From Minisyncoccota bacterium (GTDB lineage Bacteria > Patescibacteriota > Minisyncoccia > Moranbacterales > UBA2206): a stretch of 64,000 bases of DNA. Below the pieces are notes generated by a model, which saw nothing but the letters and a program-made list of their open reading frames with translations, searched no databases and was not told where the DNA came from. This document shows positions 4,517-62,384 of the stretch, piece after piece. The stretch covers positions 21,512 through 85,511 of the forward strand of contig JARLIA010000013.1 of assembly GCA_031291955.1 (NCBI GenBank), read 5' to 3'. The stretch's first letter is position 1. The number at the start of each line of letters is the position of its first letter. Position numbers and translations under genes: made by a program.

Positions 4517-4581
4517 TGGGCTGGTTTTGGATTTTAATTTATTTTTTTATTGACGTTTTAAGGATGTGCCATGTACAAAGA

Positions 4582-6480
4582 CTATTTCTTAGCGATACTG
4601 GCGGCACTCATCACTTTCACGAAGTTATTCGGCCGGCCGTCGAAAATTATTTTGAAATCACCACCGTCGGGCGAGTAAAGCCTATCGAAATCATAGTGTG
4701 ATTTCAGAACCGAACCCATAGCCATGGAGCGGTTACCGCGGTCGGTGGAAGCGACAAAATAATCAAAGTTGACGCCTTGGAGGTCTTTTGTTTTGAAACC
4801 GGTGATGCATTTTCCGACGAACGTTTCACAAACAGCCCCTTTGTCGGTCCAAATGATGAGATTTTGGGCGTTGGGGAGCGCGTTGAGATATTGAGCCGCT
4901 TCCCAGCTTCCATCCCCCACCCCCTTAAGATTAAGAATATATTTTTGCGGCAAGAGACCTGAGGCGTAGGTGAAATAGAAAGGGCGGACAGAAAACAGGC
5001 TCCAGGCTGAAATTAAGATTATGGCCGGATAAACAACATAAGATTTTGCGATCAGCTTGTATTTTCCATTTTCAAACCAAGCAACGATCTGGTCGATTCC
5101 GATCGCGGCCATGATCATGGCCAGGGGATAGAGCGCGATCTGATAGCGCACCATATCAGCCACGCCGTCCACGGCTGAACCGAGATAATAGATGGCCATG
5201 AATAAAAACAGGTACAGAATATAGTTTGACTCTTGGGACAAATTTTTCCGCAGGGTGTTTTTGCCGACAGAAAAGATCAACGCAAGATATGCCAAAGGCG
5301 TGAGACCGAAGAAAAGCGCCCAGAAATCCGAGAAGAAATCGCGGGACAGGCGGCTTGGATCGGTGACGAAAGATTTTCCTGATTTGGGCGAAGACAGGAT
5401 ATTTTGGAAATCGTAAATCTTCATGCCGGTCCAAGTGTTGATAAGGACAAAAATAATGACGAGCAAAAAAATCACTCCGCCCAAGCGGACGAGAAGATTT
5501 TTGTGACGCGCCAGAAAATCCAACGGGTAACGCAGAACAATGCTTTTGAGAAAAATGGCGTCCAAAAGAACCAAGACAATCACGGCGGCAAAGATCGGCC
5601 AGACGGATTTGAAAGCAGCCGAGAGGATAGTGCCGCCCAGGATCATCTGCGGACTGACCCAGGTGGCTGGGAAGAGGAGGCCGAAGGTGATTGCCGACAT
5701 AAGGATGACCAGAAAAAAATCCAACAGAGTTTTTTTGAAATATCCGTCCGCTGATTCATTTTCTTTCTTTTCAAAAATGTAACGCAGGAAAATCAATAAA
5801 AAGAAATACACGAAAACAACATTGGCGACGTATTTGGTGAGAAGCGCGAGACCCAAAAAGACGCCGGCGAGCAGGATGTATTTTTTTTGTTTTAGAAATT
5901 CCGGGATGTCCAGTTCGAATTTTTCTTTCGGCGCGGCTATTTCTTCATTTTTATAATGGATAAAATAGCTCAAAAGAGACAGTCCGACAAAGATCCATAA
6001 CAGGGAATCTGGGTTGATGATAAGCGACATGCCGAGAATGATCGGAGACAAGCCGATGAGGATGGTGGCAATGAGGGCGGTCCGGTCGCCCAATAGCTTC
6101 CGGATAAAAAAGAACAGCAGGAGAAGTCCGACTAAAGTAAAAAGATAATTGGGGAGACGGAAAGAAGAATAGACCTTGTAGACCTGGGCGGCCATGTCTT
6201 GAGTCTTAGGATCAGAGAGGCCCGATTTTATCGTCAGTGGATCGATCGCCCAAAGTCCGGGTCCCGTGATGATGGCAGAAGTGATGCCTGGCTTGTCGTT
6301 GATGTTGGTGCTCCGCCATTTCTGAGCCGCGACGGCTGTCCAGAATTTGGGAATCCGGGCAAAAGTCCAATATGGTTCGTCGACGGCTGAAAAGCGGGAC
6401 AGACGCGGCAGACCCAAGAGTAGATTGATCCCCAAAACGGCAAAAAGCACTAAAAAAATCGTTAATTTTTTGCGATCCAT
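4582..6480 (-). CDS. GT-C fold membrane glycosyltransferase, PMT/ArnT (GT39/GT83)-like
   Basis: 632 aa, more than 10 TM helices. First-loop DEPYW motif is typical of dolichyl-phosphate-mannose protein mannosyltransferase / ArnT-like enzymes. C-terminal soluble domain. Confidence 0.55.
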   Translation of the reverse strand: MDRKKLTIFLVLFAVLGINLLLGLPRLSRFSAVDEPYWTFARIPKFWTAVAAQKWRSTNINDKPGITSAIITGPGLWAIDPLTIKSGLSDPKTQDMAAQVYKVYSSFRLPNYLFTLVGLLLLFFFIRKLLGDRTALIATILIGLSPIILGMSLIINPDSLLWIFVGLSLLSYFIHYKNEEIAAPKEKFELDIPEFLKQKKYILLAGVFLGLALLTKYVANVVFVYFFLLIFLRYIFEKKENESADGYFKKTLLDFFLVILMSAITFGLLFPATWVSPQMILGGTILSAAFKSVWPIFAAVIVLVLLDAIFLKSIVLRYPLDFLARHKNLLVRLGGVIFLLVIIFVLINTWTGMKIYDFQNILSSPKSGKSFVTDPSRLSRDFFSDFWALFFGLTPLAYLALIFSVGKNTLRKNLSQESNYILYLFLFMAIYYLGSAVDGVADMVRYQIALYPLAMIMAAIGIDQIVAWFENGKYKLIAKSYVVYPAIILISAWSLFSVRPFYFTYASGLLPQKYILNLKGVGDGSWEAAQYLNALPNAQNLIIWTDKGAVCETFVGKCITGFKTKDLQGVNFDYFVASTDRGNRSMAMGSVLKSHYDFDRLYSPDGGDFKIIFDGRPNNFVKVMSAASIAKK

Positions 6481-6614
6481 AGTCTTTTTTTAAAAGTTTT
6501 ATACAGTTTGGATTATACCGTAATCCGGAGATAAAGTCCAAGGATTTTTAAAATTATTCCAGTTGACCCAGTCGCGCCAAGTCTGTGAATTTGAAATAAA
6601 TCTTTTCGACGATG

Positions 6615-6633
6615 TGTTATAATAAAATTATCA
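6615..6633 (+). promoter_or_regulatory. extended -10 (TGtTATAAT) overlapping a 7-3-7 near-palindrome TTATAATaaaATTATcA (PerR/Fur-box-like) about 30 bp upstream of rubrerythrin
   Basis: Read directly from the sequence; resembles the PerR/Fur operator consensus (TTATAAT-N-ATTATAA) found upstream of rubrerythrin genes in anaerobes. Confidence 0.35.
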
Positions 6634-6659
6634 GACCGTTAATCATTAATATAAAAACT

Positions 6660-7160
6660 ATGTCCAAGACTCAAGATGATCTGAAGGCAGCCTTTGCTGG
6701 TGAGTCGCAGGCCAATCGGCGCTATCTGGCATTTGCCAAGAAGGCTGAAAGCGAAAACCAGCCGGGCGTCGCCAAGCTTTTCCGGGCGGCGGCCGAAGGC
6801 GAGACGGTCCACGCGCTCAATCATTTCCGGAATCTCGGCGAAACGAAAGGCACGGCTGAAAATTTGGCGGCCGCGATTGCCGGAGAAACTTATGAGATTG
6901 AAAAGATGTATCCGGAATTTTTGGGGGACGCTCAAGACGAAAACGAAAAGAGGGCTGAGATGTCTTTTTCCGGCGCGCTGAAAGTGGAGCGGGTTCACCA
7001 AGGTCTTTTTAAAGGAGCTCTTGCGAAATTGGAAGCGGGCGAAGATGTGGCTGATGCGGACTTTTGGATCTGTCCGGTCTGCGGATTTCCAGCCAAAGAC
7101 CACGCGCCGGGCGTATGCCCCGTCTGCGCCACGCCGGGGGACAAGTTCTACAAGGTCTAG
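6660..7160 (+). CDS. rbr: rubrerythrin
   Basis: N-terminal ferritin-like diiron domain (AFAGESQANRRY) and C-terminal rubredoxin-like CPVCG...CPVC. The ATG at 6660 (MSKTQDDL) fits the family N-terminus better than the upstream ATG at 6612. Confidence 0.85.
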   Translation: MSKTQDDLKAAFAGESQANRRYLAFAKKAESENQPGVAKLFRAAAEGETVHALNHFRNLGETKGTAENLAAAIAGETYEIEKMYPEFLGDAQDENEKRAEMSFSGALKVERVHQGLFKGALAKLEAGEDVADADFWICPVCGFPAKDHAPGVCPVCATPGDKFYKV

Positions 7161-10039: not shown

Positions 10040-10084
10040 TAAATAAGCCTATTGAGCGCCTTGTTATTTATAAGTACAAAAAAT

Positions 10085-11845
10085 ATGTTTGAAAATTTCT
10101 TAGCTAAAAAATACGTCGTGCCGGCGATCCTGCTTCTCATTATGTTCGGGGCTTTTGCGGTGCGCTTTTATCATTATGACACCTGGCTCTATTTCAAGAT
10201 GGACCAGTCGCGGGACGCTTTCACTATTTCCAATGCTGTCAAAAACGGTCCGGGAAATCTACCGCTTCTTGGAGCGCGAGCCGGCGCCACCAAAGTGACC
10301 TACGGATTCCTCCATCTCGGGCCGGTCTTTTATTATTTCCAATACCTTTCGGGCGTTATTTTCCATTCGACTTCTCCGCAAGTCTTCGCTTATCCCGATC
10401 TATTCTTTTCCATCGCCGTCCTGCCGCTCTTGTATATTTTTTTGCGCCTTTATTTCTCCCGTCTCAATTCTTTGCTGATTGTTGCGATGTACGCTTTCTC
10501 GTTTCTCGTCATTGAATATTCCCGCTTCGCCTGGAATCCGAATTCGTTGCCGTTTTTCACTATCTTGAGTTTTTACGGCCTGTTGAAATTTCTTCACGAG
10601 CCGGAGGAAAAAAAACGCAAATGGTGGCTCATTCTTTGGGCGATCGGACTCACGGTCGGATCGCAGCTTCACTTCATGGGTTTCTTTTCCTTAGTGGGAA
10701 TCTCGGCGCTTTTGTTTTTCTTCCACTACGAACTTTGGAAAAAAGAAAATATACGCGGCGTTTTTCAGGAAAATAATTTTCGCGTATTGGCCCTTTACGC
10801 GGGTCTGGCCTTTTTGGTGGTGCTGATTTTTTACGCCCCGGTCATCATCAGCGATTCCATGAAAAACTGGGCCAACACCAAAGATTTTTTTCAGGCTTTC
10901 TCCACTAAACAGGGAAATCGACCCATCACGACCCGGGCGATCATTGGTCTTCAGTCCCAGATTGAATATTACGTCATGATTTTTACGTCTTACATTATCA
11001 CCAAAGGCAGTAATAATACTTACGGCTCATTGCTATCCATTTTGATCGGCGCTCTGTTTGTCGGCGGCAGTTATCTGATCTATAAATTTTTCAAAGAGAC
11101 CAAGGACAATCTGCGGAAAGATTTTCTACTTCTGGTTTTTCTGTGGTTTTTCATCTTTTTGCTGATCACCATCCCGGTGGCCACGCAAATCGAACCGCGC
11201 TATTTCATTTTCACCTTTGCCGTGCCGTTTATCTTCTTGGGATTTTTTTTCGAGTTTTCCGAAAGAAGATTGCCTGAATATTCCACGGGAATCGCTATAG
11301 CCGTGACAGTCGTAATCCTTTTGGCTAACGCGTCCGGCACGTCGGCCTGGTTTTCCGAGCAGGCCAAATCGCAAAAGGAGCATCTGACGATTCATCGGAC
11401 TTTGATCTTAAAAACTAAAGACGGGGTGACGCTCGGCCAGTTGCAAGGTGTGGCCGATTATATCTATCAAAACCGGATCCCCAGCGACCGGATCTATTTT
11501 TACGTCAAACCCGAACACGTCCGGCCGCTTAATTATCTTTTCTTTGAAAAAAACGACAAGTCTTTCAACTATTATTCTTTCAAACTGAACGGCGATCCAT
11601 TGGCGCAATATTTCATCGTTTTGCCGTCCGATTATGCAGAGAGTGAAGTAGCGGCCAAAATTAATATCAACCAGCCGATGAATATAATTTCCATGCAGAA
11701 ATTCGGCCAGCTGGCCGTCTGGCAGGTCACTTTTCCGGGACGAACAGTGGACGGCAATTTCCAAGCCAAGTCCAAAGACTCGAATGTGGAATCGGACCGG
11801 GTTTATTGGAAAGATGTTTTCGGGACGAAGAAACCTAAAAATTAA
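10085..11845 (+). CDS. GT-C fold membrane glycosyltransferase paralog 1 (ArnT/PMT-like)
   Basis: Shares the family N-terminal motifs with paralogs 2-6. These are the first-loop ...W..FxxDQ(A/S)RDA motif, HLGPxYYYF, AYPDL/V..FSI..IPLLY and SRFAWNPNS, plus a QLH block. More than 10 TM helices, then a roughly 250-aa soluble C-terminal domain. The ATG at 10085 is preferred over the ORF-track start at 10052. Confidence 0.6.
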   Translation: MFENFLAKKYVVPAILLLIMFGAFAVRFYHYDTWLYFKMDQSRDAFTISNAVKNGPGNLPLLGARAGATKVTYGFLHLGPVFYYFQYLSGVIFHSTSPQVFAYPDLFFSIAVLPLLYIFLRLYFSRLNSLLIVAMYAFSFLVIEYSRFAWNPNSLPFFTILSFYGLLKFLHEPEEKKRKWWLILWAIGLTVGSQLHFMGFFSLVGISALLFFFHYELWKKENIRGVFQENNFRVLALYAGLAFLVVLIFYAPVIISDSMKNWANTKDFFQAFSTKQGNRPITTRAIIGLQSQIEYYVMIFTSYIITKGSNNTYGSLLSILIGALFVGGSYLIYKFFKETKDNLRKDFLLLVFLWFFIFLLITIPVATQIEPRYFIFTFAVPFIFLGFFFEFSERRLPEYSTGIAIAVTVVILLANASGTSAWFSEQAKSQKEHLTIHRTLILKTKDGVTLGQLQGVADYIYQNRIPSDRIYFYVKPEHVRPLNYLFFEKNDKSFNYYSFKLNGDPLAQYFIVLPSDYAESEVAAKININQPMNIISMQKFGQLAVWQVTFPGRTVDGNFQAKSKDSNVESDRVYWKDVFGTKKPKN

Positions 11846-11876
11846 ACGGTCCATTCGAGATTAGCTCAGGCCCGAC

Positions 11877-13517
11877 ATGACTATTGGAATGGAAAAAATA
11901 AAAAAGAAGATAAAAAAAATTCCGACAAGTATTTTGATTCTGACGGTAATTGTTCTAGTTGGGATTTTCTTGCGGACCCATAATTTCCACGCTTGGTTGG
12001 AATTTGACAACGACCAGGCGCGGGATGCGGCTTTGGTGAGCGACGTCGTGACCGGAAAAACCGCTTGGCCACTGCTTGGACCGACAATGAAAGGAACAAA
12101 CGATTCTTCGGAAAATCTGTTCCATGTTGGGCCGATGTATTATTATTTTGAAATTATTTCTGCCAAAATATTCGGCAATTATCCGGACAAGCTGGCCTAT
12201 CCGGATCTGATCTTTTCCATTCTGACCATCCCACTCTTTTATTATTTTTTGAAAAAATATTTCAGCGCCAATTTATCTTTGGCTCTCGCCGGTCTTTGGA
12301 CTTTTTCCTATTTCGCCATCAAATTTTCCCGCTTCGCCTGGAACACCAATTCCATGCCGTTTTTTATTTTGCTTTTTCTTTTGGGACTGGGAGAATTTTT
12401 GTTCCGGCGGGAAAAAACTTCCTGGTGGTGGGCGCTGGCTTTGGGGATCGCGCTCGGTGTGGGAGTGCAGCTTCACGCTATGCTTCTGGTTATGTTTCCG
12501 TTTTTTTGCTTGGGCGGATTTTTTCTGACTGTCAAAAGCGGAAAGGGGATGTGGCTGCGCTGGGGAAGCGTTCTTCTTATCGCGCTGGTTCTTAATGCCG
12601 GTCAGATAGTCCACGAACTCGACACAAATTTCCAAAACACGTATGCTTTTTTCCAGAACGCCAACGATCGTTCCGGATCTAGGGCGGATAAGTTTTCCCA
12701 GACGTTCGCTCTGGACGCGGCGTGCCATGTCCAATCCAACGCGTTCATGCCTTCCGCCCTTGGCGACAAGGACCATTGCAATTTTTTGAAGACCGCGGCG
12801 GGTTGGGTGGCTTTGGATTATGATTCCTATTGGCAGCTCGGATTCATTCTGGCGGCGCTGGCCTTTTCTTTGTTCGGCTATGCGGCATTGGTTCGGAATT
12901 TTTTGAAGGAAACCGACCGCGAGCGGAAAATATTTTTCGGACTGGCTCTTGGTTATATAATTCTCTTTTTCATTATCATGTTCGCTTCCATCCAAGAAGC
13001 GCCACTCCGCTATTTTCTTCCGTCTTTTTTTGTGCCTTATTTATTCCTGGGATTTTTGATCCAAGCCGGACAAAAGAAATATCCGCGCCGATATTTCCCG
13101 GTCGTGGCGCTGGGACTCGCGATCCTCCTGGCTCTGAACGTGATTTATCTCTTGACTGTCATTTCCCAGCTCGAGGCCAAGGACCGAAGCGGGAGCAGCG
13201 ACGTTATCTTGGGCGAGCTGGAATCGATGCGCGATTACATCATCACGACCGCCGCGCCGAGCAAGACTGCGTATTTTTCCGGCGGATCCCATTACGTTTT
13301 TCGTTTTCTCCGGCCGCTCCAATATTTGGCTGGCAAGGACAATTTCTCGATTAAGCAAGAACCCCAACTGTTTGCTAGTATGAAACCAGGAGAACCGGTA
13401 TTTTACATTTATGCCAGCTATCCCCGGAAAAAATTAACCGCAATCAAGGGGATGCCGATCGTGACTTACAAAAATTTCGGCCAAGTGGCCGTGTACGAAG
13501 TGATTAAGACGAAATAA
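11877..13517 (+). CDS. GT-C fold membrane glycosyltransferase paralog 2
   Basis: Motifs FLRTHNFHAWLEFDNDQARDA, HVGPMYYYF, YPDKLAYPDLIFSIL, SRFAWNTNS and QLHA; 31 bp after paralog 1. Confidence 0.6.
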   Translation: MTIGMEKIKKKIKKIPTSILILTVIVLVGIFLRTHNFHAWLEFDNDQARDAALVSDVVTGKTAWPLLGPTMKGTNDSSENLFHVGPMYYYFEIISAKIFGNYPDKLAYPDLIFSILTIPLFYYFLKKYFSANLSLALAGLWTFSYFAIKFSRFAWNTNSMPFFILLFLLGLGEFLFRREKTSWWWALALGIALGVGVQLHAMLLVMFPFFCLGGFFLTVKSGKGMWLRWGSVLLIALVLNAGQIVHELDTNFQNTYAFFQNANDRSGSRADKFSQTFALDAACHVQSNAFMPSALGDKDHCNFLKTAAGWVALDYDSYWQLGFILAALAFSLFGYAALVRNFLKETDRERKIFFGLALGYIILFFIIMFASIQEAPLRYFLPSFFVPYLFLGFLIQAGQKKYPRRYFPVVALGLAILLALNVIYLLTVISQLEAKDRSGSSDVILGELESMRDYIITTAAPSKTAYFSGGSHYVFRFLRPLQYLAGKDNFSIKQEPQLFASMKPGEPVFYIYASYPRKKLTAIKGMPIVTYKNFGQVAVYEVIKTK

Positions 13518-13539
13518 AAAATAAGATCCGATTGCCGTT

Positions 13540-15222
13540 ATGTTTTTTCAAATTCAAAAAAATATAAAAAAAAATTCCGCGGCCGGGTGGATTCTTTTGG
13601 CAATTTTTGTTGTCGGCGTTTTTTTGCGGACTTATAATTTTCACGCCTGGCTGGAATTTCGAAGCGACCAGGCGAGAGATGCGTACCGGACCGACCAGGT
13701 GGTTTCAGGAGAAAAGCCTTGGCCGCTTGTGGGGCCGTTTTTGAGCCATTCCGGTCCCACCGAAGACGAGTCGTTCCATGTTGGTCCGATCTATTATTAT
13801 TTCCAGATAATTTCCGCCGAAATTTTCGGCAGCTATCCCGACAAACTGGCCTATCCTGATGTCTTTTTTGCTATCTTGTCCATCCCGCTTTTCTATTTGT
13901 TTTTGCGGGAATACTTCGGCAAAAATGTTTCACTGGGGCTTACCGGGCTGTATTCCATCGGCGCTTATATTATCCGCTATTCCCGTTTTGCTTGGAGCTG
14001 CAATTCGATTCCGTTTTTCGTTTTGTTGTTTTTGCTGTCTCTTTTCAAGCTGTGGGACAAAAACGAAAAAACCGCCTGGGCTTGGGCGGTCGCGCTGGGA
14101 GTCGCCTGGGGAGTCGGGTTTCAACTGCACGCCCTGACGATGATCGCTTTTTCCGGCACGGCTTTTTTGGTTTTTATTTTTTCAATGAGGAAAAATCCCG
14201 CAACTTGGAAAAAATGGTCCGTGGTTTTGGCGATATTTGTTCTTTTGAACTCGGCTCAAGTTGTCGGTGAAATAAAAACCAATTTTGAAAACACCCGGGC
14301 TCTTTCGCGTTTTCTTTTTCAGAACGGTTCCGCGGATAACCCGAGTGGTCTCGACAGTTCGAATCCCATCAATCACGCCGGCGTTTCCACTTTGTTGAAA
14401 AACGACATCGATTGCAGCCTGGAGGCCAATTTTTTGTACCTGTCGTCTTACAATGACGTCGCTTTCGGCCGCGAAAATTGTCAGGGAAATTATTGGAAAC
14501 TTTTTTCGCGGAGCAATACGAAAAAACATTCAAAAGTATCTTGGATAAAGATCGGCGATGTGGTTCTTTTTTCCAGTCTTGTTTTTTCCCTCGTTGGCTA
14601 TTTTCTTCTGTTGTTCTATGATAAAAAAGAACCAAATGAAAGAAAGCGGCGTTTTCTGCACCTGCTTGTTCTGTATACAGGCTTGGCGTTTTTGCTCATG
14701 CTGCCTCTGAGCAGCGGAAAATTCGGCGATTTGAGATATTTCAGTCTTCTTTTTTTCTTGCCCTTTTTGTTTTTAGGGCTTATCGCAAAACTTCTCTTCG
14801 AAAAAGTCGCTCCAAAATATATTGCAATACCGGTTGCGGCTGTAATTTTTTCCTTGTTTGCGGCTTCCAATGTTTCGGCGATAACTTATCGGCTTTCAAT
14901 ACTTTCCAAAAAAGAAGGCATGGACTCCGGCACGGCTGTCCTGGGAGAAATGGAAGACACGCTTGATTATGCGATTTCCCATTCAAACGGGCAGAAAAAA
15001 ATATATCTAGGAGGGAACCGTTCTTTAACGGCCCATTCTTTCGACTCTTTGCAATATCTGGCCGGGAAACAAAATGTGGGGCTGATAAAATTCGGCGACA
15101 AAGATAAACTGGACCCGGCCAAGAAACCGGCCTTCTGTGTTGATGATAAAATAGATAAAAAAGAGGCCGTTTACGGTTATAAAAAAGTGGGCAACGTTTA
15201 TATTTATCAGATAAACAAATGA
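13540..15222 (+). CDS. GT-C fold membrane glycosyltransferase paralog 3
   Basis: Motifs FLRTYNFHAWLEFRSDQARDA, HVGPIYYYF, SRFAWSCNS and QLHA; 22 bp after paralog 2. Confidence 0.6.
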   Translation: MFFQIQKNIKKNSAAGWILLAIFVVGVFLRTYNFHAWLEFRSDQARDAYRTDQVVSGEKPWPLVGPFLSHSGPTEDESFHVGPIYYYFQIISAEIFGSYPDKLAYPDVFFAILSIPLFYLFLREYFGKNVSLGLTGLYSIGAYIIRYSRFAWSCNSIPFFVLLFLLSLFKLWDKNEKTAWAWAVALGVAWGVGFQLHALTMIAFSGTAFLVFIFSMRKNPATWKKWSVVLAIFVLLNSAQVVGEIKTNFENTRALSRFLFQNGSADNPSGLDSSNPINHAGVSTLLKNDIDCSLEANFLYLSSYNDVAFGRENCQGNYWKLFSRSNTKKHSKVSWIKIGDVVLFSSLVFSLVGYFLLLFYDKKEPNERKRRFLHLLVLYTGLAFLLMLPLSSGKFGDLRYFSLLFFLPFLFLGLIAKLLFEKVAPKYIAIPVAAVIFSLFAASNVSAITYRLSILSKKEGMDSGTAVLGEMEDTLDYAISHSNGQKKIYLGGNRSLTAHSFDSLQYLAGKQNVGLIKFGDKDKLDPAKKPAFCVDDKIDKKEAVYGYKKVGNVYIYQINK

Positions 15223-16857
15223 AAAATTATCTTAAAAATGTTACGGCCCGTGCTTGGATCCTTTTGGTGATCATGGCTGTTGGAATATTTCTGCGTGCTT
15301 GGCATTTTCATGACTGGCTGCGTTTCAGCGAGGACCAATCACGGGATGCTGGCATAATAAGCAATGTTATTAAAGGTGAAAGTCCGTTGCCGCTTTTGGG
15401 ACCCGTGGCTGGCGGTACGTTTTTCCATTTGGGTCCGGCTTATTATTATTTTTCCATTGTTAGCTCTAAGCTGTTTGGGGACTATCCGGACAGGATGGCT
15501 TATCCGGTTTTGTTTTTTTCCATTTTGGCCATCCCGCTGCTTTATTTGTTTTTGAAGGAATATTTCAGTTGGCGAATTTCGTTGGCTGTAACGGCAGTAG
15601 CGAGTGTTTCGTATTTTTCTGTCGTGAGCTCGCGTTTTTCCTCTAATCCCAATCTGGCGCCGTTTTTTGTGTTGGCTTTTCTGTATTCCTTTTTGAAATT
15701 GCTTAATGATAAAGAGCGCGCGTCTTTTTGGTGGCCGGCCGCGATCGGAACCGTGTTGGGAATCGGCATCCAGATCCACACCACGCTTCTGGTTATTTTG
15801 CCGATTTTTACCCTGCTGATGCTGGCGTATCTCATAAAAAAGACCGGCTGGCGGGCGGTGCGCTATGCGTTGGTAATCATAGTTTTATCTTTGGCGATGA
15901 ACGCGCCGCAGATCGCAAGCGAAATCGAAACCCGCGGCCAGAACACTATTCAGTTTTTCGGCGGCTTGGGCCTGAAAGGGAGTTCTTCCGGTAGTGGCCT
16001 GGCTCAGGGTGCTCTGACTGCCGCACTTTGCCAAGCCAAAGCCAACTCCTATTTCATTTCTTCTTTTCCCGCTGCCCAGACCTGCTCGTCCGGCATAGAT
16101 TTCGATCTTGAAAAAGGCGCCAAGGAAGTGTTTGGCGGCATTAAGGACCGCTCCTTCCGGCAAAACGTCTATCTGGCCGACGTTTCATTTTTGTTTCTTT
16201 TTTCCATTGGGGGGTTATTTTTTGTTGATTTATAATCTTTTAAAAGAAAAAGACGCCCGGAAGAATAATTTTCTCGCGCTGGTCGCTCTTTTCAATTTCG
16301 TTTCGTATATTTTAATCATCCCTGTCATTTCCTCCATGGCCGTGAGCTATTTCATCATTCTGCTTTTCGTGCCGTTTGTGCTGCTTGGATTGATGTTTCG
16401 ATATATCGAAGAGAATATGAAACTGTCTGGAATAGGATTGATTTTATTTTTAGCGGCTGTCCTGATGATTTTTTCGCTGCAGGCGGAAAAGAGCGACGCG
16501 GATCTTTATGTTGCTCGCCTTGACAACAACGTGGAAAACAGCGACCTGGGAGCGATTGAGGATATCTCCGCCTACATTCTGGATAATTCGTCTTTTGCTC
16601 CGAAGATTTATTTGAGTGGCAGAAAAGATTATTTGAACCGGTTCTCCGGCTCGCTTACGTACATGATTGGACGGCAGGGAAGGCAGCTGGTATCATTGGA
16701 CATAAGCGATTCCGACACTCTCCGCTCCGGCCAGACATTTTTCTATGTCCAAAAAAGCGGGAAGGGGAGTGTGACTCGCAATGAAGAGATCGGGGGATAC
16801 GCGGCTGTTGACGGTGAAAGAATCGGCGGCGTGGAAATTTATATTTTGAAAAAATAA
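15219..16857 (+). pseudogene. GT-C glycosyltransferase paralog 4, interrupted by a frameshift (ORFs 15219..16235 and 16108..16857)
   Basis: The N-terminal ORF carries the family motifs (FSEDQSRDA, HLGPAYYYF, SRFSSNPN). Homology to paralog 5 continues in the second ORF's frame from about 16200: GGYFLLIYNLLKEKDARKNNF aligns with GYYFLIYNFVREKENGRKNF. The frame change maps to a G6 run at 16209..16214. Confidence 0.6.
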
Positions 16858-16870
16858 TGTTTTCGAAATT

Positions 16871-18469
16871 ATGAAATCGATTCCGGACAAAATTAAAAAT
16901 ATCTCGAAATATTTTTGGGTTTTCCTGGCTATTTTTCTGGTCGGTGTTTTTCTCCGTACGTATAAATTCCATGATTGGATGCGTTTTTCTATGGACCAGG
17001 CGAGAGATGCCGCCATCATCAGTAATGCTGTTGCCGGGAAAGCACCCTTGCCGTCCCTTGGGCCAGATGCTGGAAACACTAAGTTTTTGCTCGGGCCGAT
17101 GTATTACGATTTGTCTTATCTCAGCGCTAAAATATTCGGAAATTATCCCGACAAGATGGCCTATCCCAGCCTGGCTTCCGGCATCTTAGCTATTTTGTTC
17201 CTATTCTTTTTTCTTCGCGAATATTTCGACCAAAAAATCTCGCTGGCGCTTACGGGAATCATGAGTGTTTCATATTTCATGATCGACACATCCCGTTTTT
17301 CATCGAACCCTAATCTGGTGCCGCTTTTTGTCATTCTGTTTCTCTGGGGGTTGCTGAAAATTATCAATGACCCGCGGGAATTTCATCCCGGCTGGAGCGC
17401 TCTGGTCGGTTTTGCCCTGGGCATGGGGGTCCAGATGCACGCCATCACTTTGGTGGTGATGCCGGTTTTCGGTCTTTTAGCTCTGGTTTATTTTTGGAAA
17501 GTAGGCGGAAAGGGGATGGGAAAAAGTTTGATCATAATTATCGCGTTAGCTTTGCTTTTCAACATCGGGCAGATCACGTCGGAACTTCACACTAATTTTC
17601 AAAACACCCGGAATTTTTTCCAAGGGCTCAAGAGCAAATCAGAAAACAATTATGGGGAGGGTGCGGGTCTCATTGCTGCTTGTCAGATCGAGGCCAACGG
17701 TTATTTTCTGACTTCCATCGGTGATGACTATGATTGCGGTGATATTTTCAAAACACCCAAAGGCGGCTGGATCGCCGACAAATCTTATCTTCTGACGCTG
17801 GCTGCCTACACGCTCTTTTCGCTGACCGGTTATTATTTTTTGATTTACAATTTTGTCAGAGAAAAAGAAAATGGGCGGAAAAATTTTCTGGGACTGGTCC
17901 TTCTTTTTAATCTACTGACTTTCATCGTACTTGTAAGTGTTTCCAGCGTTATCCATGTAGGGTATTACATCGTTCTGTTTTTCATGCCGTTCGTGCTTCT
18001 GGGAATTCTTATGGAAGCAGTGCGGAATAAATACGGCCGAAAGGGAATGCTGGCGGCCGCGGTGGTCATTCTTCTTTTGATCGGGTCTTCTTTGGCAGTG
18101 GACGGCGCGATGGCTTCAAGTTATGCTCAAGGTTTACAAAACAATTCAAGCAACAGCACGCTTTTTCAAGCTGAAGCGATGGCGGATTATATCCTGACAA
18201 CCAGCCCCCAAAATGTTTCCAAGGTTTATTTCGCCGGGCAAGGGAGTTTGGCCAAACGCTACTATGACGCGACCATCTATCTTGTCCGGCAAAGCGGCCT
18301 AAATATGTCTTTGATCAAAGATGTCGACAGCCGCAGGATTGCGCCCGGAGTGCCGATTTATTACATCGCCCAAAGCGGCGCTTATCCGGTACCGGGAATG
18401 ATTGGTAACCGCCAGATAACAGCCAGTCGGCAATTTCTCAACCAGACGATTTATATTTTGAAAAACTAA
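16871..18469 (+). CDS. GT-C fold membrane glycosyltransferase paralog 5
   Basis: Motifs FLRTYKFHDWMRFSMDQARDA, LGPMYYD, YPDKMAYPSL, SRFSSNPN and QMHA. Confidence 0.6.
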   Translation: MKSIPDKIKNISKYFWVFLAIFLVGVFLRTYKFHDWMRFSMDQARDAAIISNAVAGKAPLPSLGPDAGNTKFLLGPMYYDLSYLSAKIFGNYPDKMAYPSLASGILAILFLFFFLREYFDQKISLALTGIMSVSYFMIDTSRFSSNPNLVPLFVILFLWGLLKIINDPREFHPGWSALVGFALGMGVQMHAITLVVMPVFGLLALVYFWKVGGKGMGKSLIIIIALALLFNIGQITSELHTNFQNTRNFFQGLKSKSENNYGEGAGLIAACQIEANGYFLTSIGDDYDCGDIFKTPKGGWIADKSYLLTLAAYTLFSLTGYYFLIYNFVREKENGRKNFLGLVLLFNLLTFIVLVSVSSVIHVGYYIVLFFMPFVLLGILMEAVRNKYGRKGMLAAAVVILLLIGSSLAVDGAMASSYAQGLQNNSSNSTLFQAEAMADYILTTSPQNVSKVYFAGQGSLAKRYYDATIYLVRQSGLNMSLIKDVDSRRIAPGVPIYYIAQSGAYPVPGMIGNRQITASRQFLNQTIYILKN

Positions 18470-18549
18470 GTAACTAACGCGGGGACGTGCCATGTTCCCA
18501 GTTGGAAAACAGCGTTTGGACATGGTACGTCCAAAGTCGAAGCAAGAAG

Positions 18550-20175
18550 ATGCAAGAATATTTTAAAAAAATTATGCGGCAAAAAACTTTCTGGCTCCTG
18601 GTCGGGATAATCTTGGTCGGCGCATTTTTGCGGACTTATCAATACGCCAATTTCCTGCGTTTCAACCCCGATCAGGCGCGGGACGCCGGCATAATTCGCG
18701 ACGCAATCGACGGAAAGGCCGCTTTGCCGCTCCTGGGACCGAAAGCCGGCGGCACCAGTTTCCAATTGGGGCCGGTTTTTTATGATTTCGCGTATTTCTC
18801 CGCCAAGATTTTCGGCGCGGCGCCGGACAGGATGGCTTATCCCGATCTTCTGACCTCGATTTTGTTCCTGCCGCTTCTTTATGAGTTCGCGCGTAAATTC
18901 TTTTCAAAAAATATTTCCTTGGTCGCGACGGGGTTGGCGGCTGTGTCGTTTTATGCTGTGAAATATTCCCGCTTTGCTTGGAATCCCAACTCGACGCCTT
19001 TTTGGATCCTGCTGACTTTCTACGCTTTTTTCGAATTGGTTCGGTCCGGTCAGAGAAAGCGTTGGCTTTGGGCGATTGTTTTGGGTCTCGCGGCCGGTGT
19101 TGCCATCCAGCTGCATTCTTTGGCCTTGTTCTCACTGCCGGTCGTTTTTGTGATTTATTTTGTTTATCTTTTTTTCAAAAAAAATCCGGCTTGGAAATGG
19201 GCGCCGGTTGTTCTGGCTGTCGTACTGTTGGCTAATTCGTTCCAGATTGCGAGTGAAGTCCAGACTGGAGGCAAAAACATCCAGTCCTTTTTTCGCGGCA
19301 TGCACGCCAAAACTTCCCGCTCCGGAACGTTAGCGGATAAGTTTGTGCTCGACGCCGTCTGCCATATTCAAGGAGAGAGCTATATGATTCTCCCGATCGG
19401 CAACGACAGTCATTGCGATTTTATGGACGCGGCCGGCAGTTTACAAAAAAATAGCAATAATAATTTTCTTTTGTTGGGAGATATGCTTTTTGCCGTCATT
19501 TTTGTTCTGGGTGGATACTTTCTTCTTTTCCGAGCTTGGTGGAAAGAAACGGACGAGCGGAAAAAAATATTTTTGGAACTTATCCTGCTTTATGCGGTTG
19601 TTCTTTTCGTCCTGTTGATTCCTTTGGCCGACGAGATTTCTTTCCGCTTTTTCCTGGTGGCGGAATTTCTGCCGTTCATTTTCGCCGCTTTGTGGATCAA
19701 GTTTTTCGAAGAACGTCTTGAGAAAAAATACTTTATCATTGTTGTAGCTATAATCGTAGGTATGGCCGTAGGTACGAACCTGACGACTTTGACGGATTAT
19801 GCCGCCAATTTGGCCGGTGTTCGGGCACAGGGCTCCAACGGTTTTGAAGAGATCACGCTGGGCGAAGTGAAATACATGGCTGATTTTATGGAAACCAATT
19901 CGGGCGGCGCTAAGATTGTTTATGTCCAGGGCAGTGCTGCCGATCTTTTCGAGGTCCTAAAGCCGATCGAATATTTCACAAGTCCCTCCGGCCTCAAAGT
20001 GATCCAGCTCAAAAAAGGAAAAATTTTGGCGCCGATGGACAAAATTTTTCTCATCAATGTCATGAAAGATCCAACCAAGAAAAATACTCTTTCCCAAAGC
20101 ACTCTAGATAGCTATAGCGTCCTGGCTTCCGGCCGGTACGGTCGTGTCAAGATTTATGAATTGGAAATGAAATAG
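18550..20175 (+). CDS. GT-C fold membrane glycosyltransferase paralog 6
   Basis: Motifs FLRTYQYANFLRFNPDQARDA, LGPVFYDF, YPDLLTSILFLPLLY, SRFAWNPNS and QLHS. The internal ATG at 18550 (MQEYFKK) is preferred over the GTG-type start at 18487. Confidence 0.6.
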   Translation: MQEYFKKIMRQKTFWLLVGIILVGAFLRTYQYANFLRFNPDQARDAGIIRDAIDGKAALPLLGPKAGGTSFQLGPVFYDFAYFSAKIFGAAPDRMAYPDLLTSILFLPLLYEFARKFFSKNISLVATGLAAVSFYAVKYSRFAWNPNSTPFWILLTFYAFFELVRSGQRKRWLWAIVLGLAAGVAIQLHSLALFSLPVVFVIYFVYLFFKKNPAWKWAPVVLAVVLLANSFQIASEVQTGGKNIQSFFRGMHAKTSRSGTLADKFVLDAVCHIQGESYMILPIGNDSHCDFMDAAGSLQKNSNNNFLLLGDMLFAVIFVLGGYFLLFRAWWKETDERKKIFLELILLYAVVLFVLLIPLADEISFRFFLVAEFLPFIFAALWIKFFEERLEKKYFIIVVAIIVGMAVGTNLTTLTDYAANLAGVRAQGSNGFEEITLGEVKYMADFMETNSGGAKIVYVQGSAADLFEVLKPIEYFTSPSGLKVIQLKKGKILAPMDKIFLINVMKDPTKKNTLSQSTLDSYSVLASGRYGRVKIYELEMK

Positions 20176-42158: not shown

Positions 42159-42995
42159 CTATAATTTGATTTCAGCAATCCGCCATTTTCCGCCCAGATC
42201 CTTCCTGAATTTTATATTTGCCTTGGGAAAGTATTTCTTAATAAGTTTGGCGAGGGAAGGTTTTTGTTCGGGACTAAACTCCGCGTAACACATAATGTGC
42301 GGCACGTTACAATTATTTTGCAATTTTTTTATTTGCTGAAAAAGTTTTTCGTAATGGGCTAGGCCATCCTTATTAGAGAACAAAGCGGACTTCGGTTCGA
42401 AATTTTTGACATTAGGAGCGGTGGTGGCGTAAATCTTTTGAGAGAGATAAGGAAGGTTACTGGCAATTATCAATTTACAATTTACAATTTTCAATGACTT
42501 TTTATTTTTGAAAAAATAATTCAGAAGATCGGATTTTATAAATTTTATTTTTTTATCGACGCCGTGATTCTTGGCGTTGCGTCTGGCGATGCGAAGAGCT
42601 TTCTCTGAAATATCAGCGGCGAAGAAGTTATTTTTATTTTTTATGTTTTTTGCGAGACTAATAATGATATTGCCGCTGCCGGTTCCGATGTCGATGACGG
42701 TTTTATTTTTTGGCTCCAGTTTGATTATTTCTTCCACGAGCAGTTCTGTTTCGGGACGGGGAATGAGTGTGTCTTGGGTAACCTTAAAATCCAGGCCGTA
42801 AAATTCTTTCTGGCCTAAAATGTAGGCCATGGGCTCGTGATTTTCTCGCCGTTTGACCAGTTGATTAAACTTGGAATTCTGGGTTTTATTTAAAGTTCTT
42901 TCCGGGTGCGCCAAAACATATTCCCTTGATTTTTTGAGAATATGGGCTAGAATCAGTTCTATTTCAAAGGGCGGTATTTTATTGCAAGTCATCAT
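42159..42995 (-). CDS. prmC: release factor glutamine N5-methyltransferase PrmC/HemK (variant catalytic motif NLPY)
   Basis: [15 protein letters not shown]-binding motif and an ASNLPYL block aligned to the NPPY motif. It overlaps the prfA stop by 4 nt (prfA-prmC operon). Confidence 0.7.
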
Positions 42996-44056
42996 TTCCC
43001 CAATTTCCTCTTAGTGTCTTCCTCTTCCAGCGCGGAAACGATTTCGTCCAGTCCGCCATCAAGAATTCCTGAGATGTTGCTCCAGCTTTCTTTTATCCGG
43101 TGGTCGGTGATGCGATCCTGGGGGAAGTTGTAAGTGCGGATTTTTTCGCTCCGGTCGCCGGTGCCGATCTGTGATTTCCTCGCGTCTCCAAGTTCTTTGG
43201 CGCGTTTATCTTCTTCGATCTGGAGAAGTCGTGAGCGCAAAACTTTCATGGCCTTGTCTTTGTTTTTCAATTGAGACTTTTCATCCTGACAGGAAACGAT
43301 GAGCCCGGTCGGGATGTGAGTGATGCGGACAGCGCTTTTGGTGGTGTTCACGGACTGGCCGCCCGGACCTGATGAGCAAAAGGTGTCGATGCGCAGATCT
43401 TTTTCTTCGATTTTCATTTCCACTTCTTCGGCTTCCGGGAGAACGGCGACGGTGGCGGTGGAAGTATGCACGCGCCCGACTTTTTCCGTTTCCGGCACTC
43501 TTTGCACGCGATGCACTCCGGATTCATATTTCATTTTTCCATAAGCGCCGTGCCCGTTGATTTCGAAAACCACTTCTTTGAAGCCGCCTATCCCGGTCTG
43601 GTTTGAATTGAGAAGGGTGGTGTGCCAGCGGTTCCGTTCGGCGTAGCGGGAATACATCCGGAAAAGCTCGGCCGCGAAAAGCGCCGATTCGTCTCCGCCA
43701 GCTCCGGCCCGGACTTCGATGATGATGTTTTTTTCGTCGTGAGGATCTTTTGGTACCAGCATTTTTTCCAATTCATGCTCCAGAATTTCTTTTTTAGCCG
43801 CCAGCTCGGCGTTTTCTTCCATCGCCATTTGCTTGAGTTCGCCCTCCTCGTCCGGGGAATTTATGATTTTGGCGTTTCCCGCCATGGTGTTTTCCAGTTT
43901 TTCCAGTTCGTTGATGCCCGCCATAACTTCCGCCAGTTCCGCCTGTCTTTTGCCAAGTCGCGCCATTTTTTGGGTATCTGAAACTATCCCCGGATCATTG
44001 AGCTGGGTGGCGATGTCTCCATATTCGGTTTTGATCTGTTCGATTTGTTCTTTCAT
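42992..44056 (-). CDS. prfA: peptide chain release factor 1
   Basis: 354 aa, [23 protein letters not shown] motif, followed by prmC. Confidence 0.9.
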
Positions 44057-60491: not shown

Positions 60492-60707
60492 AGCCGAAGA
60501 CCGGACTTGAACCGGTAACCTACGGTTTACCCGCCCGAAATGCTTGAGCCCTCTGCCAGAATTGAACTGGCAACCTACGGTTTACGATACCGTTGCTCTA
60601 CCAATTGAGCTAAGAGGGCATTTCAAGCGGGCGCGGCGATACCGTTGCTCCTAGCCCGCATCGCTACGCGAAGCGTTGCGAGCGGGTACCAATTGAGCTA
60701 CTTCGGC
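60492..60707 (-). tRNA. interrupted second tRNA-Thr(CGU) copy: 5' half 60637..60707 (with a 36-nt D-loop insertion) and 3' half 60492..60529
   Basis: Joining the halves and removing the D-loop insert gives GCCGAAGTAGCTCAATTGGTAGAGCAACGGTATCGTAAACCGTAGGTTACCGGTTCAAGTCCGGTCTTCGGCT. This is a perfect cloverleaf, with acceptor GCCGAAG/CTTCGGC and T-arm ACCGG/CCGGT. Confidence 0.45.
60547..60619 (-). tRNA. tRNA-Thr (anticodon CGU)
   Basis: Manual cloverleaf: acceptor GCCCTCT/AGAGGGC (7 bp), D-arm GCTC-AATTGGTA-GAGC, anticodon arm ACGGT-AUCGUAA-ACCGT, variable AGGTT, T-arm GCCAG-TTCAATT-CTGGC, discriminator U; 73 nt with no CCA. Confidence 0.8.
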
Positions 60708-60748
60708 GACTTATTTAATATTACATAAGTATTTAAAAAAAATCAATT

Positions 60749-61279: not shown

Positions 61280-62384
61280 ATGACCAAAGAACTGGAAGAA
61301 AGATTGCAAAAAATCAAAAATAAAATCGCTCTTTTGAGCGACTATCTTTGACTTACCGGGCAAACTTAAAAGAATAGAAAGTCTGGAAAAAGAGTCGTCG
61401 ACGACCGGCTTTTGGGATGACGCGCAAAACGCCGGAGGAATAATGCGGGAATTGGAAGAATTGCGTTCCGAGGTCAGGATGCTTGGCGATTTGGAAAGCG
61501 AAGCGGATGAGTTGGTGGAATTTATGGAAGTTTTTTCCGAGACGGACGCGACCAGTGAAGATGAAGATAAGGAGGTGGGAGGTAGGCTGTCTGTTATGGA
61601 AAAGACAGTCGACCAGCTTGAGTTTAAGACTCTGTTTTCTGGCCAATATGATCGGAATGACGCTATTGTGACAATCATGAGCGGAGCCGGCGGGTTGGAT
61701 GCCCAAGATTGGAGCGAAATGCTGCTCCGGATGTATCTGCGCTGGGCGGAAAAAAATAATTTCCGGGCCAAGATCGTTGATGAGGCGCGCGGGCAAGAAG
61801 CGGGAATAAAAAGCGTAACTTTGGAAGTGAGTGGCTCGTATAGTTACGGGTGGCTCAAAAGCGAAGCGGGCGTTCATCGATTAGTGAGACTCTCGCCGTT
61901 TAACGCCGATAATCTCCGTCAGACTTCCTTTGCTTTGGTGGAAGTCATGCCGGTAATTGAAGAGATAAAAGAGGTCAAAATAAATCCAGCCGATCTGCGA
62001 ATCGATGTTTATCGTTCCAGCGGCGCGGGCGGCCAAGGAGTGAATACGACCGATAGCGCCGTGCGCATAACGCATATCCCGACCGGAATCATGGTTACTT
62101 GTCAGAATGAAAGATCCCAGCTGCAAAACAAAGAATCGGCCATGAAAATTCTCCGCGCCAAATTGCACCAAAAATATCTTTCCGAGCAGGAAGCGGAAAA
62201 AAGAAAATTGCGGGGCGAATCGGTAGCGGCCGAATGGGGGAGTCAGATCCGATCCTATGTCCTTCATCCTTACAAAATGGTGAAAGATCACCGCACCAAA
62301 CACGAAACCGCCCAAGCGGAGGAAGTCCTTCTTGGAAATCTTGACGAATTTATGGAAAGTTACTTGAGGTCTCTCAAGAAATAG
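61280..62384 (+). CDS. prfB: peptide chain release factor 2, expressed via programmed +1 frameshift (frame 0 61280..61348, then +1 frame 61350..62384)
   Basis: Frame 0 MTKELEERLQKIKNKIALLSDYL ends at TAT CTT TGA C (61343..61352), identical to the E. coli RF2 slippery site. The +1 frame continues ...FSGQYDRNDAIVTIMSGAGGLDAQDW...[23 protein letters not shown]. Confidence 0.85.

Follow-up and report, generated by a model that had tools for sequence, protein, structure and literature searches.

REP and REPIN sequences are non-coding, imperfect palindromes of 20–40 nt that form hairpins in single-stranded DNA or RNA, are extragenic, and are abundant within a genome beside their cognate RAYT, an IS200/IS605-like Y1 transposase (PMC3116915). 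Here we describe a palindrome of comparable size in a 64,000-nt stretch of DNA from a Minisyncoccota bacterium (assembly GCA_031291955.1, contig JARLIA010000013.1, positions 21,512 to 85,511; the whole stretch is called the window), in which a tRNA-Thr(CGU) gene is interrupted twice, by a 36-nt hairpin in the D-loop and by a 107-nt insert holding a second tRNA-Thr(CGU) gene in the anticodon loop. As in REP and REPIN sequences, the 36-mer forms a hairpin, it belongs to a family of dispersed copies that enter or adjoin each other, and it lacks coding capacity, so that it would have to be moved in trans; possibly it also fits the scheme of a hairpin followed by a short conserved tail (CGGG). Unlike REP sequences, it has no extra copy in the 64 kb, both copies sitting in the one tRNA gene, no RAYT was found among the open reading frames (ORFs) of the window, and the family occupies genes, both in the loops of tRNA genes and in frame in ORFs, with near-identical copies on contigs of 46% to 66% GC. 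Rickettsia palindromic elements (RPEs) are 100–150 bp long and restricted to Rickettsiales (PMC1779305). They too are selfish palindromic repeats, found in intergenic and, in frame, in protein-coding sequence, where they are tolerated in the product; the present elements are set apart from them by size and host, being 27–36 bp long, about four times smaller, and occurring in Patescibacteria and phage-like contigs.

Non-canonical introns of archaeal tRNA genes measure 11–129 nt and occupy positions other than 37/38, including the D-arm (PMC4090602). They share with the present inserts that there are several per tRNA, that some carry a small RNA, and that exact removal restores a standard tRNA. 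Our locus differs from them in that no bulge-helix-bulge is formed, the host is bacterial, family members occur in both orientations and are retained in ORFs, and host copies decay in relatives. The family resembles miniature inverted-repeat transposable elements (MITEs) in its terminal inverted repeats of 9–10 bp, its non-autonomous nature and its variable internal cargo, here sometimes a whole tRNA gene, but it causes no target-site duplication, is several-fold smaller and has no known parent insertion sequence. A parallel exists with those genomic islands and phages whose integration into a tRNA gene brings a replacement segment: the insert in the anticodon loop likewise breaks a tRNA gene, and it would supply the lost function from the resident promoter; here, however, the insert has only 107 nt and no integrase, replaces the whole tRNA and not its 3' end, and lies inside the anticodon loop. 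The small dispersed repeats (SDRs) of cyanobacteria, reportedly described by Elhai et al. in 2008 as mobile, non-coding, 21–27 nt long and sometimes nested, and cited as SDR in PMC3116915, are likened to the family by description only, and we know of no report of SDRs in tRNA loops or with tRNA cargo. We place the present element among the miniature palindromic mobile elements. We consider it likely that the 36-mer is a copy of a tiny REP- or MITE-like mobile palindrome that is not spliced and resides in a young relic gene, while the nested tRNA does the decoding.

An Exact Insertion in a Resident tRNA-Thr Gene

On the minus strand (Table 1), the 5' part of the gene reads GCCGAAG TA GCTC AATTGGTA, followed by the palindrome CCCGCTCGCAACGCTTCGCGTAGCGATGCGGGCTAG and then by GAGC A ACGGT ATCG; the 3' part, after the 107-nt insert, reads TAA ACCGT AGGTT ACCGG TTCAAGT CCGGT CTTCGGC T. 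An earlier note, made from the sequence alone, had placed a 36-nt insert in an otherwise standard D-arm at 60637–60707, an interval that comprises exon 1, the hairpin and exon 2. The insert itself was confirmed by relatives with an empty site, which fix the ends. Loci L006 (from JGI) and L007–L009 (from ENA) share the gene order of the window, namely PFOR-beta, tRNA-Thr (minus strand), rubrerythrin and prfB, and their rubrerythrin is 88% identical to that of the window. All of them carry an uninterrupted tRNA-Thr(CGU), GCCGAAGTAGCTCAATTGGTAGAGCAACGGTATCGTAAACCGTAGGTTACCGGTTCAAGTCCGGTCTTCGGCT, which is identical at 73/73 positions to the outer tRNA without both inserts; exon 1 equals positions 1–21 of the uninterrupted tRNA of L006/L007.

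Because these relatives match the joined outer exons at every position, the insert boundaries are fixed and target-site duplication is excluded. In the D-loop, the sequences GGTA and GAGC that flank the insert in the window are joined as GGTAGAGC in L006, and the insert has exactly 36 nt between A21 and G22, without ambiguity. The anticodon-loop insert has 107 nt between G35 and U36, with an ambiguity of one G. Neither site shows a target-site duplication. The empty-site orthologues carry the same uninterrupted tRNA, and the outer tRNA is therefore the resident gene.

Table 1. Positions of the nested tRNA-Thr(CGU) genes and their parts in the window.
Feature	Position	Strand	Description
Nested tRNA-Thr region	60707..60492	minus	36-nt and 107-nt inserts in one tRNA-Thr(CGU) gene
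Promoter-like hexamers	60718..60746	minus	TTGATT-17 nt-TAATAT; upstream of the outer tRNA; read by eye; conserved in L006
Outer tRNA-Thr(CGU), exon 1	60687..60707	minus	Acceptor 5' strand, D-stem 5' strand, D-loop; GCCGAAGTAGCTCAATTGGTA
36-nt palindromic element	60651..60686	minus	Between A21 and G22 of the outer tRNA-Thr; CCCGCTCGCAACGCTTCGCGTAGCGATGCGGGCTAG
Outer tRNA, exon 2	60637..60650	minus	D-stem 3' strand, anticodon-stem 5' strand, loop up to G35; GAGCAACGGTATCG
Anticodon-loop insert	60530..60636	minus	107 nt; arm CCGCGCCCGCTTGAAAT, complete inner tRNA-Thr(CGU), arm CAAGCATTTCGGGCGGG
Inner (cargo) tRNA-Thr(CGU)	60547..60619	minus	Intact; ARAGORN; Rfam tRNA model, 68.7 bits
Outer tRNA, exon 3	60492..60529	minus	U36 to the discriminator base; TAAACCGTAGGTTACCGGTTCAAGTCCGGTCTTCGGCT

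The arms of the 107-nt insert are 17 nt each and pair with one another in an 8-bp GC-rich helix followed by CUUG/CAAG. The GC-rich helix resembles the terminal repeats of the family described below, and between the arms lies a complete foreign tRNA-Thr(CGU), the only tRNA called in the window by the gene finders (ARAGORN, Rfam). CCA is encoded by neither the outer nor the inner tRNA. The promoter-like hexamers agree with the consensus at 8/12 positions, which is under the threshold of the scan tool, and the promoter and terminator scan gave no site above that threshold. The 36-mer alone folds at −20.7 kcal/mol (z = −4.1), and none of 200 shuffled sequences folded as well. The fold of the whole 226-nt region consists of two nested cloverleaves (−102 kcal/mol, z = −6), and in this predicted precursor the inserts protrude as helices from the loops.

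The assembly of the locus was compared with other data. Logan contigs of SRR23300979 and SRR23300977 cover it entirely at 100% identity, and both SRR23300978 and GCA_031291895.1 contain the same 5' half with the hairpin before their contigs break inside the inner tRNA. Four independent assemblies agree, and the locus with its hairpin is not an assembly artefact. The break point lies in a stretch common to both tRNAs, which have 41 identical central bases. These shared bases, and the assemblies that end there, are what could be said for a chimera of two tRNA-Thr genes or, more generally, for a pseudogene in decay that had suffered a random insertion or a local duplication, without any tie to a repeat family. 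Such an explanation has next to no probability, since two sets of contigs span the locus identically, two further assemblies concur over the hairpin, and elements in unrelated contigs are up to 33/36 identical to the 36-mer, with equal length and equal boundaries. The latter identity rules out a random origin of the 36-mer, and the chimera is effectively refuted by the spanning contigs together with the family matches.

A Family of Short Hairpin Elements

The first search pattern, which came from the hairpins inserted in L004 and L005, two other loci of Patescibacteria, was applied to IMG/VR contigs and revealed recurrent hairpins of 27, 30, 33 and 36 nt with the ends CCTGCCCGC...GGCAGGCGGG. 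A second pattern, based on the core of the 36-mer, gave three further copies, CCCGCCCGCAACGCTTCGCGTAGCGATGCGGGCGGG in L222, CCTGCCCGCAACGCTTCGCGTAGCGATGCGGGCGGG in L223 and CCTGCCCGCAATGCTTCGCATAGCGATGCAGGCGGG in L224. The L222 element is identical to the window copy at 33/36 positions (differences C6>T and GG34-35>TA) and lies on a GC-rich contig unrelated to the window; the suggestion in the earlier note that the 36-mer might recur elsewhere as a mini mobile element thus proved right, with similar elements in other contigs.

Members of the family have lengths of 27, 30, 33 or 36 nt and terminal inverted repeats of 9–10 bp of the form CCYGCCYGC...GCRGGCRGG. The 36-mer of the window is a member of this family, with the same length, terminal inverted repeats and the core CGCAAYGCTTCGC...GCGA. 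The eight distinct 36-mers, the window copy and seven others, are collinear and free of gaps, with a mean column identity of 91%, and the boundaries of the canonical element coincide exactly with those deduced for the insert from the empty site of L006. The canonical 36-mer is a near-perfect palindrome (−29 to −34 kcal/mol). Its terminal repeats, CCCGCCCGC/GCGGGCGGG, form nine perfect base pairs, of which the window copy retains seven. The stems that the earlier note had taken as perfectly compensated, and as a sign against simple decay of the tRNA, are in fact the built-in palindrome of a repeated element.

Two pairing registers were compared among the eight sequences. In the flush register, the element forms a 15-bp hairpin with 92% of the positions paired and no covariation. 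In the shifted register, positions 1–32 form a hairpin with a 4-nt 3' tail and 88.5% are paired; here C-G to U-A changes on both sides occur at pairs 3:30 and 12:20, a covariation that with eight sequences is only suggestive. RNAfold selects the shifted register for the window copy (−20.7 vs −18.5 kcal/mol). The CTAG 'tail' of this fold was considered as part of an archaeal-like splice motif and rejected, as it is the mutated CGGG end of the canonical element.

Beyond these contigs, the canonical 36-mer had no BLAST match among INPHARED phages or PLSDB plasmids, and the 120 rows returned by a metagenome scan with GCAACGGTATCGCCSSSC were all chance hits to GC-rich sequence, not one of them in the context of a tRNA. 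No published description of the family or of its sequence motifs was found in the literature. Within the window, the 36-mer is unique even when up to three mismatches are allowed, and the only other matches to the terminal motif CCYGCCYGC are at 52362 and 53645, each close to the 3' end of a MacB/FtsX permease gene, the two genes being paralogues; we judged these to be coding-sequence coincidences and not copies of the element.

Mobility and In-Frame Retention in Phage-Like Genes

Besides the filled site of the window and the empty sites of L006/L007, evidence for mobility came from phage-like contigs. A conserved portal-like gene of L082 contains a clean in-frame insert of 27 nt, CCCGCCTGCCAAGCCTTGGCGGGCAGG, between GCCA and TTGA, which is absent in L048, where the empty site reads GCCATCGA; no target duplication surrounds it, and L058 has further family copies in the same gene. 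In L222, an ORF of 786 amino acids includes two 36-mers in opposite orientations, translated as PARNASRSDAGG and PPASLREAMRAG. Elements also enter each other: the loop of a 36-mer in L039 contains a 33-mer, and in L038 and L087 a 27-mer lies inside a 33-mer that is seen intact in L098. Some contigs have up to five family copies. Wherever insertion points are known in RNA genes and in other family copies, they are loops, and at the three sites for which an empty allele is defined, no target-site duplication was seen.

Many members lie in frame within long ORFs, in both orientations, and among the 55 distinct hairpin-forming members of up to 45 nt the length is divisible by three in 42 (binomial p = 8e-11). 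This length bias, together with the in-frame sites, fits elements that are read through in coding sequence and retained in RNA better than elements that are spliced. When family elements were removed in silico from all phage-like loci and ARAGORN was run again, no hidden interrupted tRNAs appeared.

Other small repeats were seen in the same contigs. The phage-like contig L081 has, at 3400–6700, intergenic units of three 9-nt direct repeats (CTCTGTGAT CTCTGTGGG CTCTGTGAG), and such units are also present in L024, L025, L033, L041 and L070; the 33-nt and 36-nt elements repeatedly enter them at one point, GATC/TCTG, with intact units in the same contig. A second, unrelated small repeat is in frame in the portal-like ORF of L082, L048, L076 and L058 (...SLRGAQRRSNL... 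or ...AKQSQGIA...; DNA ...CGAAGCAATCTC...). These phage genes seem to host several families of tiny repeats, kept in frame.

Nested and Decaying tRNA Genes in Other Patescibacteria

Nested tRNA genes were also found outside the window. L005 (580–870, Patescibacteria metagenome-assembled genome (MAG) JBDRCJ010000057.1) contains tRNA-Thr(CGU) genes nested three deep. An insert of the form CCTGCCCGCC...GGCAGGCGGG interrupts the outermost after A23, in the D-arm, and carries the middle tRNA, which is in turn interrupted after G35, in the anticodon loop, by an oppositely oriented insert, CCCGCCTGCC...GGGCAGG, with the inner tRNA as its cargo; without its tRNA, this second insert is the reverse complement of a canonical 33-mer. 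No hairpin-only insert accompanies the tRNA-bearing inserts of L005.

In L004 (6450–7110, MAG CAYXNZ010000005.1), a tRNA-Gly(CCC) is nested in another tRNA-Gly(CCC), whose outer copy has a T-loop hairpin and T-loop substitutions including U55. Tandem 3'-partial copies of tRNA-Thr with hairpins of 40 nt and 33 nt, in the anticodon and T loops, stand beside an intact gene, and there is one further degenerate fragment. The MAG is labelled Gammaproteobacteria, yet it is AT-rich and has Falkowbacteria-like proteins, and the label looks wrong.

Relatives of L004 were gathered through its neighbouring peptidase gene. The tRNA-Gly and tRNA-Thr genes are uninterrupted in L226 and L230, and L225 has the uninterrupted form of the outer tRNA-Gly of L004. 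The tRNA-Thr of L225 is split at the D-arm position known from L005, by the same element in a different resident tRNA, and the contig ends there. In L227, the outer tRNA-Gly is reduced to a 5' remnant, accompanied by one arm of an element and by the cargo tRNA, which is intact. In L231, a relic truncated at its 5' end follows an intact tRNA-Thr and has a decayed hairpin-only insert at D-arm position 23/24, and in L232 a 3' relic of tRNA-Gly holds two elements. These related loci document stages in the decay and loss of outer genes. The decaying pseudogene that the earlier note had offered as an alternative is supported in part: relic-type copies have decayed in related genomes, whereas the outer exons in the window have no substitutions, so that this gene, if a relic, must be very young.

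Relative to the sense strand of the tRNA, family members are found in either orientation, and for each hairpin-only insert seen, an intact tRNA with the same anticodon lies inside or beside the host copy. Cargo tRNAs are closer to each other, or to resident tRNAs of other lineages, than to their own hosts; the inner tRNA of the window matches the L005 cargo tRNA at 64/73 positions and its own outer tRNA at 60/73. Scans of viral sequences for tRNA-Thr genes with D-loop or anticodon inserts gave 0 matches, and no literature was found on nested tRNAs in bacteria or on tRNA introns in the candidate phyla radiation (CPR). Target-site specificity for ATCG/TAA, seen in three lineages, was not inferred, as the search pattern itself demanded that site.

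Contigs L002, L003, L225, L226, L233 and L234 end exactly in or beside clusters of tRNAs and elements. Assemblies appear to break at such clusters, and MAGs may contain too few of them. In L227/L229, at 4139–4540, the peptidase and ABC-transporter genes are separated by a gene for a PF05635-domain protein (23S rRNA intervening-sequence protein or Avd-like), which at that site is confined to one Falkowbacteria lineage.

Splicing, Co-Option or a Mobile Element

A bulge-helix-bulge consists of a 4-bp helix with two 3-nt bulges on opposite strands and a splice site in each (PMC4090602). In the minimum free energy (MFE) fold, the D-stem leads via an AA bulge into a 4-bp helix (UUGG/CUAG), which a UA bulge separates from the hairpin. 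Each bulge has 2 nt and lies on the 5' strand, and the 3' junction is at a helix-helix stack, outside any bulge; the 8-bp helix of the anticodon insert meets the host sequence flush at its base. A protein-spliced intron of the archaeal or eukaryal type was rejected because the MFE fold has no bulge-helix-bulge. A group I intron was rejected as well, as 36 nt in a D-loop compare with a core of 200 nt or more (P3–P9), normally in the anticodon loop. At E ≤ 10, Rfam gave only the inner tRNA beyond chance-level matches, with no intron or other family. The archaeal-type non-canonical intron raised in the earlier note was not supported: besides the missing bulge-helix-bulge, the host belongs to the CPR, elements lie in both orientations, copies are in frame in ORFs, and relatives contain truncated relics.

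A genuine bacterial tRNA intron of another kind would have both inserts cut at the bases of their GC-rich helices and the exons ligated by undescribed machinery, with both tRNAs functional. The inserts can indeed be removed to the exact nucleotide to give a tRNA identical to functional orthologues, the precursor folds as nested cloverleaves with each insert a helix on a loop, and the inserts of tRNA genes occupy D, anticodon and T loops, all exposed in RNA. However, there is no ribozyme-sized core, and neither EndA, RtcB nor another ligase was found by Pfam scans among the 62 ORFs of the window, whose 64 kb are a part of the genome. The bias to lengths divisible by three in protein genes would be needless if the elements were spliced, and this weakens the case for an intron. 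It is further opposed by the occurrence of both orientations, by the truncated or mutated outer or partial tRNAs that bear hairpins in L004, L227, L231 and L232, and by the hairpin-only cases, which are always accompanied by an intact tRNA of the same anticodon. Overall, we regard such an intron as unlikely.

The hairpin might instead have been co-opted as a cis-acting processing or stability element, such as an RNase III site or a protective stem-loop that aids maturation of the inner tRNA, and be maintained for this role. It is stable (−20.7 kcal/mol) and in effect belongs to the inner tRNA's 5' leader, it shares a compact fold with the outer exons, and the exons are undecayed, but relatives process the same tRNA locus without a hairpin, the tRNA-bearing inserts of L005 have none, and only one strain carries it. 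Moreover, the loss of two of the nine canonical terminal pairs in the window copy looks like drift. Co-option thus appears somewhat less probable even than splicing.

Our preferred explanation, a mobile palindrome in a young relic, has several observations to contend with. The outer exons show 0/73 changes, while 4-fold degenerate sites of the flanking genes differ by 40–47% (against L006 and L007); about 20 changes would be expected in exons left unconstrained since the split, and none was seen. Either the insertions are therefore recent or the exons are still selected. If recent, both insertions would have to fall within roughly the last 13% of the branch; continued selection would favour a functional, spliced outer tRNA. 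The window copy is already 3/36 positions away from the nearest canonical copy, and if these changes arose after the insertion, the element is older than the undamaged exons suggest. All three nested tRNAs of L005 still form good cloverleaves. Splicing keeps a small share of the probability for these reasons, namely the undecayed exons, the three changes in the element and the fully intact L005 nest. In addition, the window has no further family copies, unlike genomes with REP elements, Pfam scans of its 62 ORFs found no transposase, RAYT or HUH protein, and the tRNA-hosted cases are a small sample biased by the search route.

Under the mobile-palindrome explanation, the nested unit would be transcribed whole from the single resident promoter, and RNase P and RNase Z would free the inner tRNA, which decodes. 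The outer gene would now be just a promoter, leader and trailer, a very young relic, and the D-loop hairpin would stay unspliced in the leader RNA. The hairpin would be tolerated because this copy of the gene is redundant; in a sole functional tRNA copy, selection would remove it. The element would be moved in trans by some enzyme, probably via single-stranded hairpin DNA as in IS200/IS605-RAYT systems.

A broader proposal can be made, which we rate as equally likely to prove right or wrong. Patescibacteria and phage-like contigs of several environments would harbour undescribed, ultra-small hairpin elements with terminal inverted repeats that insert into loops without target duplication. Some would carry a tRNA into its cognate gene, in nests up to three deep, with the resident gene replaced and then decaying, and the 36-mer in the D-loop would be the cargo-less form. 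A bolder variant holds that exact excision, at the RNA or DNA level, keeps the outer tRNAs usable. The tRNA-carrying form of the element and the nests of tRNA within tRNA appear to be undescribed.

Implications

If this proposal is true, the hairpin is the trace of a mobile-element system for which we have found no description so far. Palindromes of 27–36 bp would fit into tRNA loops and, in frame, into proteins, and would be nearly unchanged between CPR bacteria and unrelated GC-rich phage-like contigs. By carrying a tRNA into its own cognate gene, a selfish element would offset the damage of its insertion with minimal means, and a route of horizontal tRNA-gene replacement would be possible in bacteria with tiny genomes. 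Nests break metagenome assemblies and hide or duplicate tRNA genes for tRNA finders, which skews estimates of the tRNA complement and genome completeness of CPR bacteria. If the inserts are spliced instead, they would be the first known case in Bacteria of tRNA splicing that depends on proteins or otherwise works without a group I intron, a major finding.

Host Organism and Neighbouring Genes

The host is a CPR/Patescibacteria bacterium and not an archaeon. The rubrerythrin next to the tRNA locus carries the name 'Candidatus Pacebacteria' and its relatives are named Moranbacteria, and the window encodes both RF1 and RF2, the latter with a CTTTGAC frameshift site. The RF2 gene, prfB, lies at 61290–62384, with a programmed +1 frameshift site of the classical type (CTT TGA C) near 61345, and the RF1 gene is found on the minus strand at 42992–44056. 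A second rubrerythrin gene is located at 6612–7160. The window also contains seven paralogous genes for PMT/PMT_2-type glycosyltransferases (4582–6480 and 10052–20175), six of them in one array; they are part of a large region for cell-envelope glycosylation that also includes rhamnose-synthesis genes and several GT2/GT4 genes.

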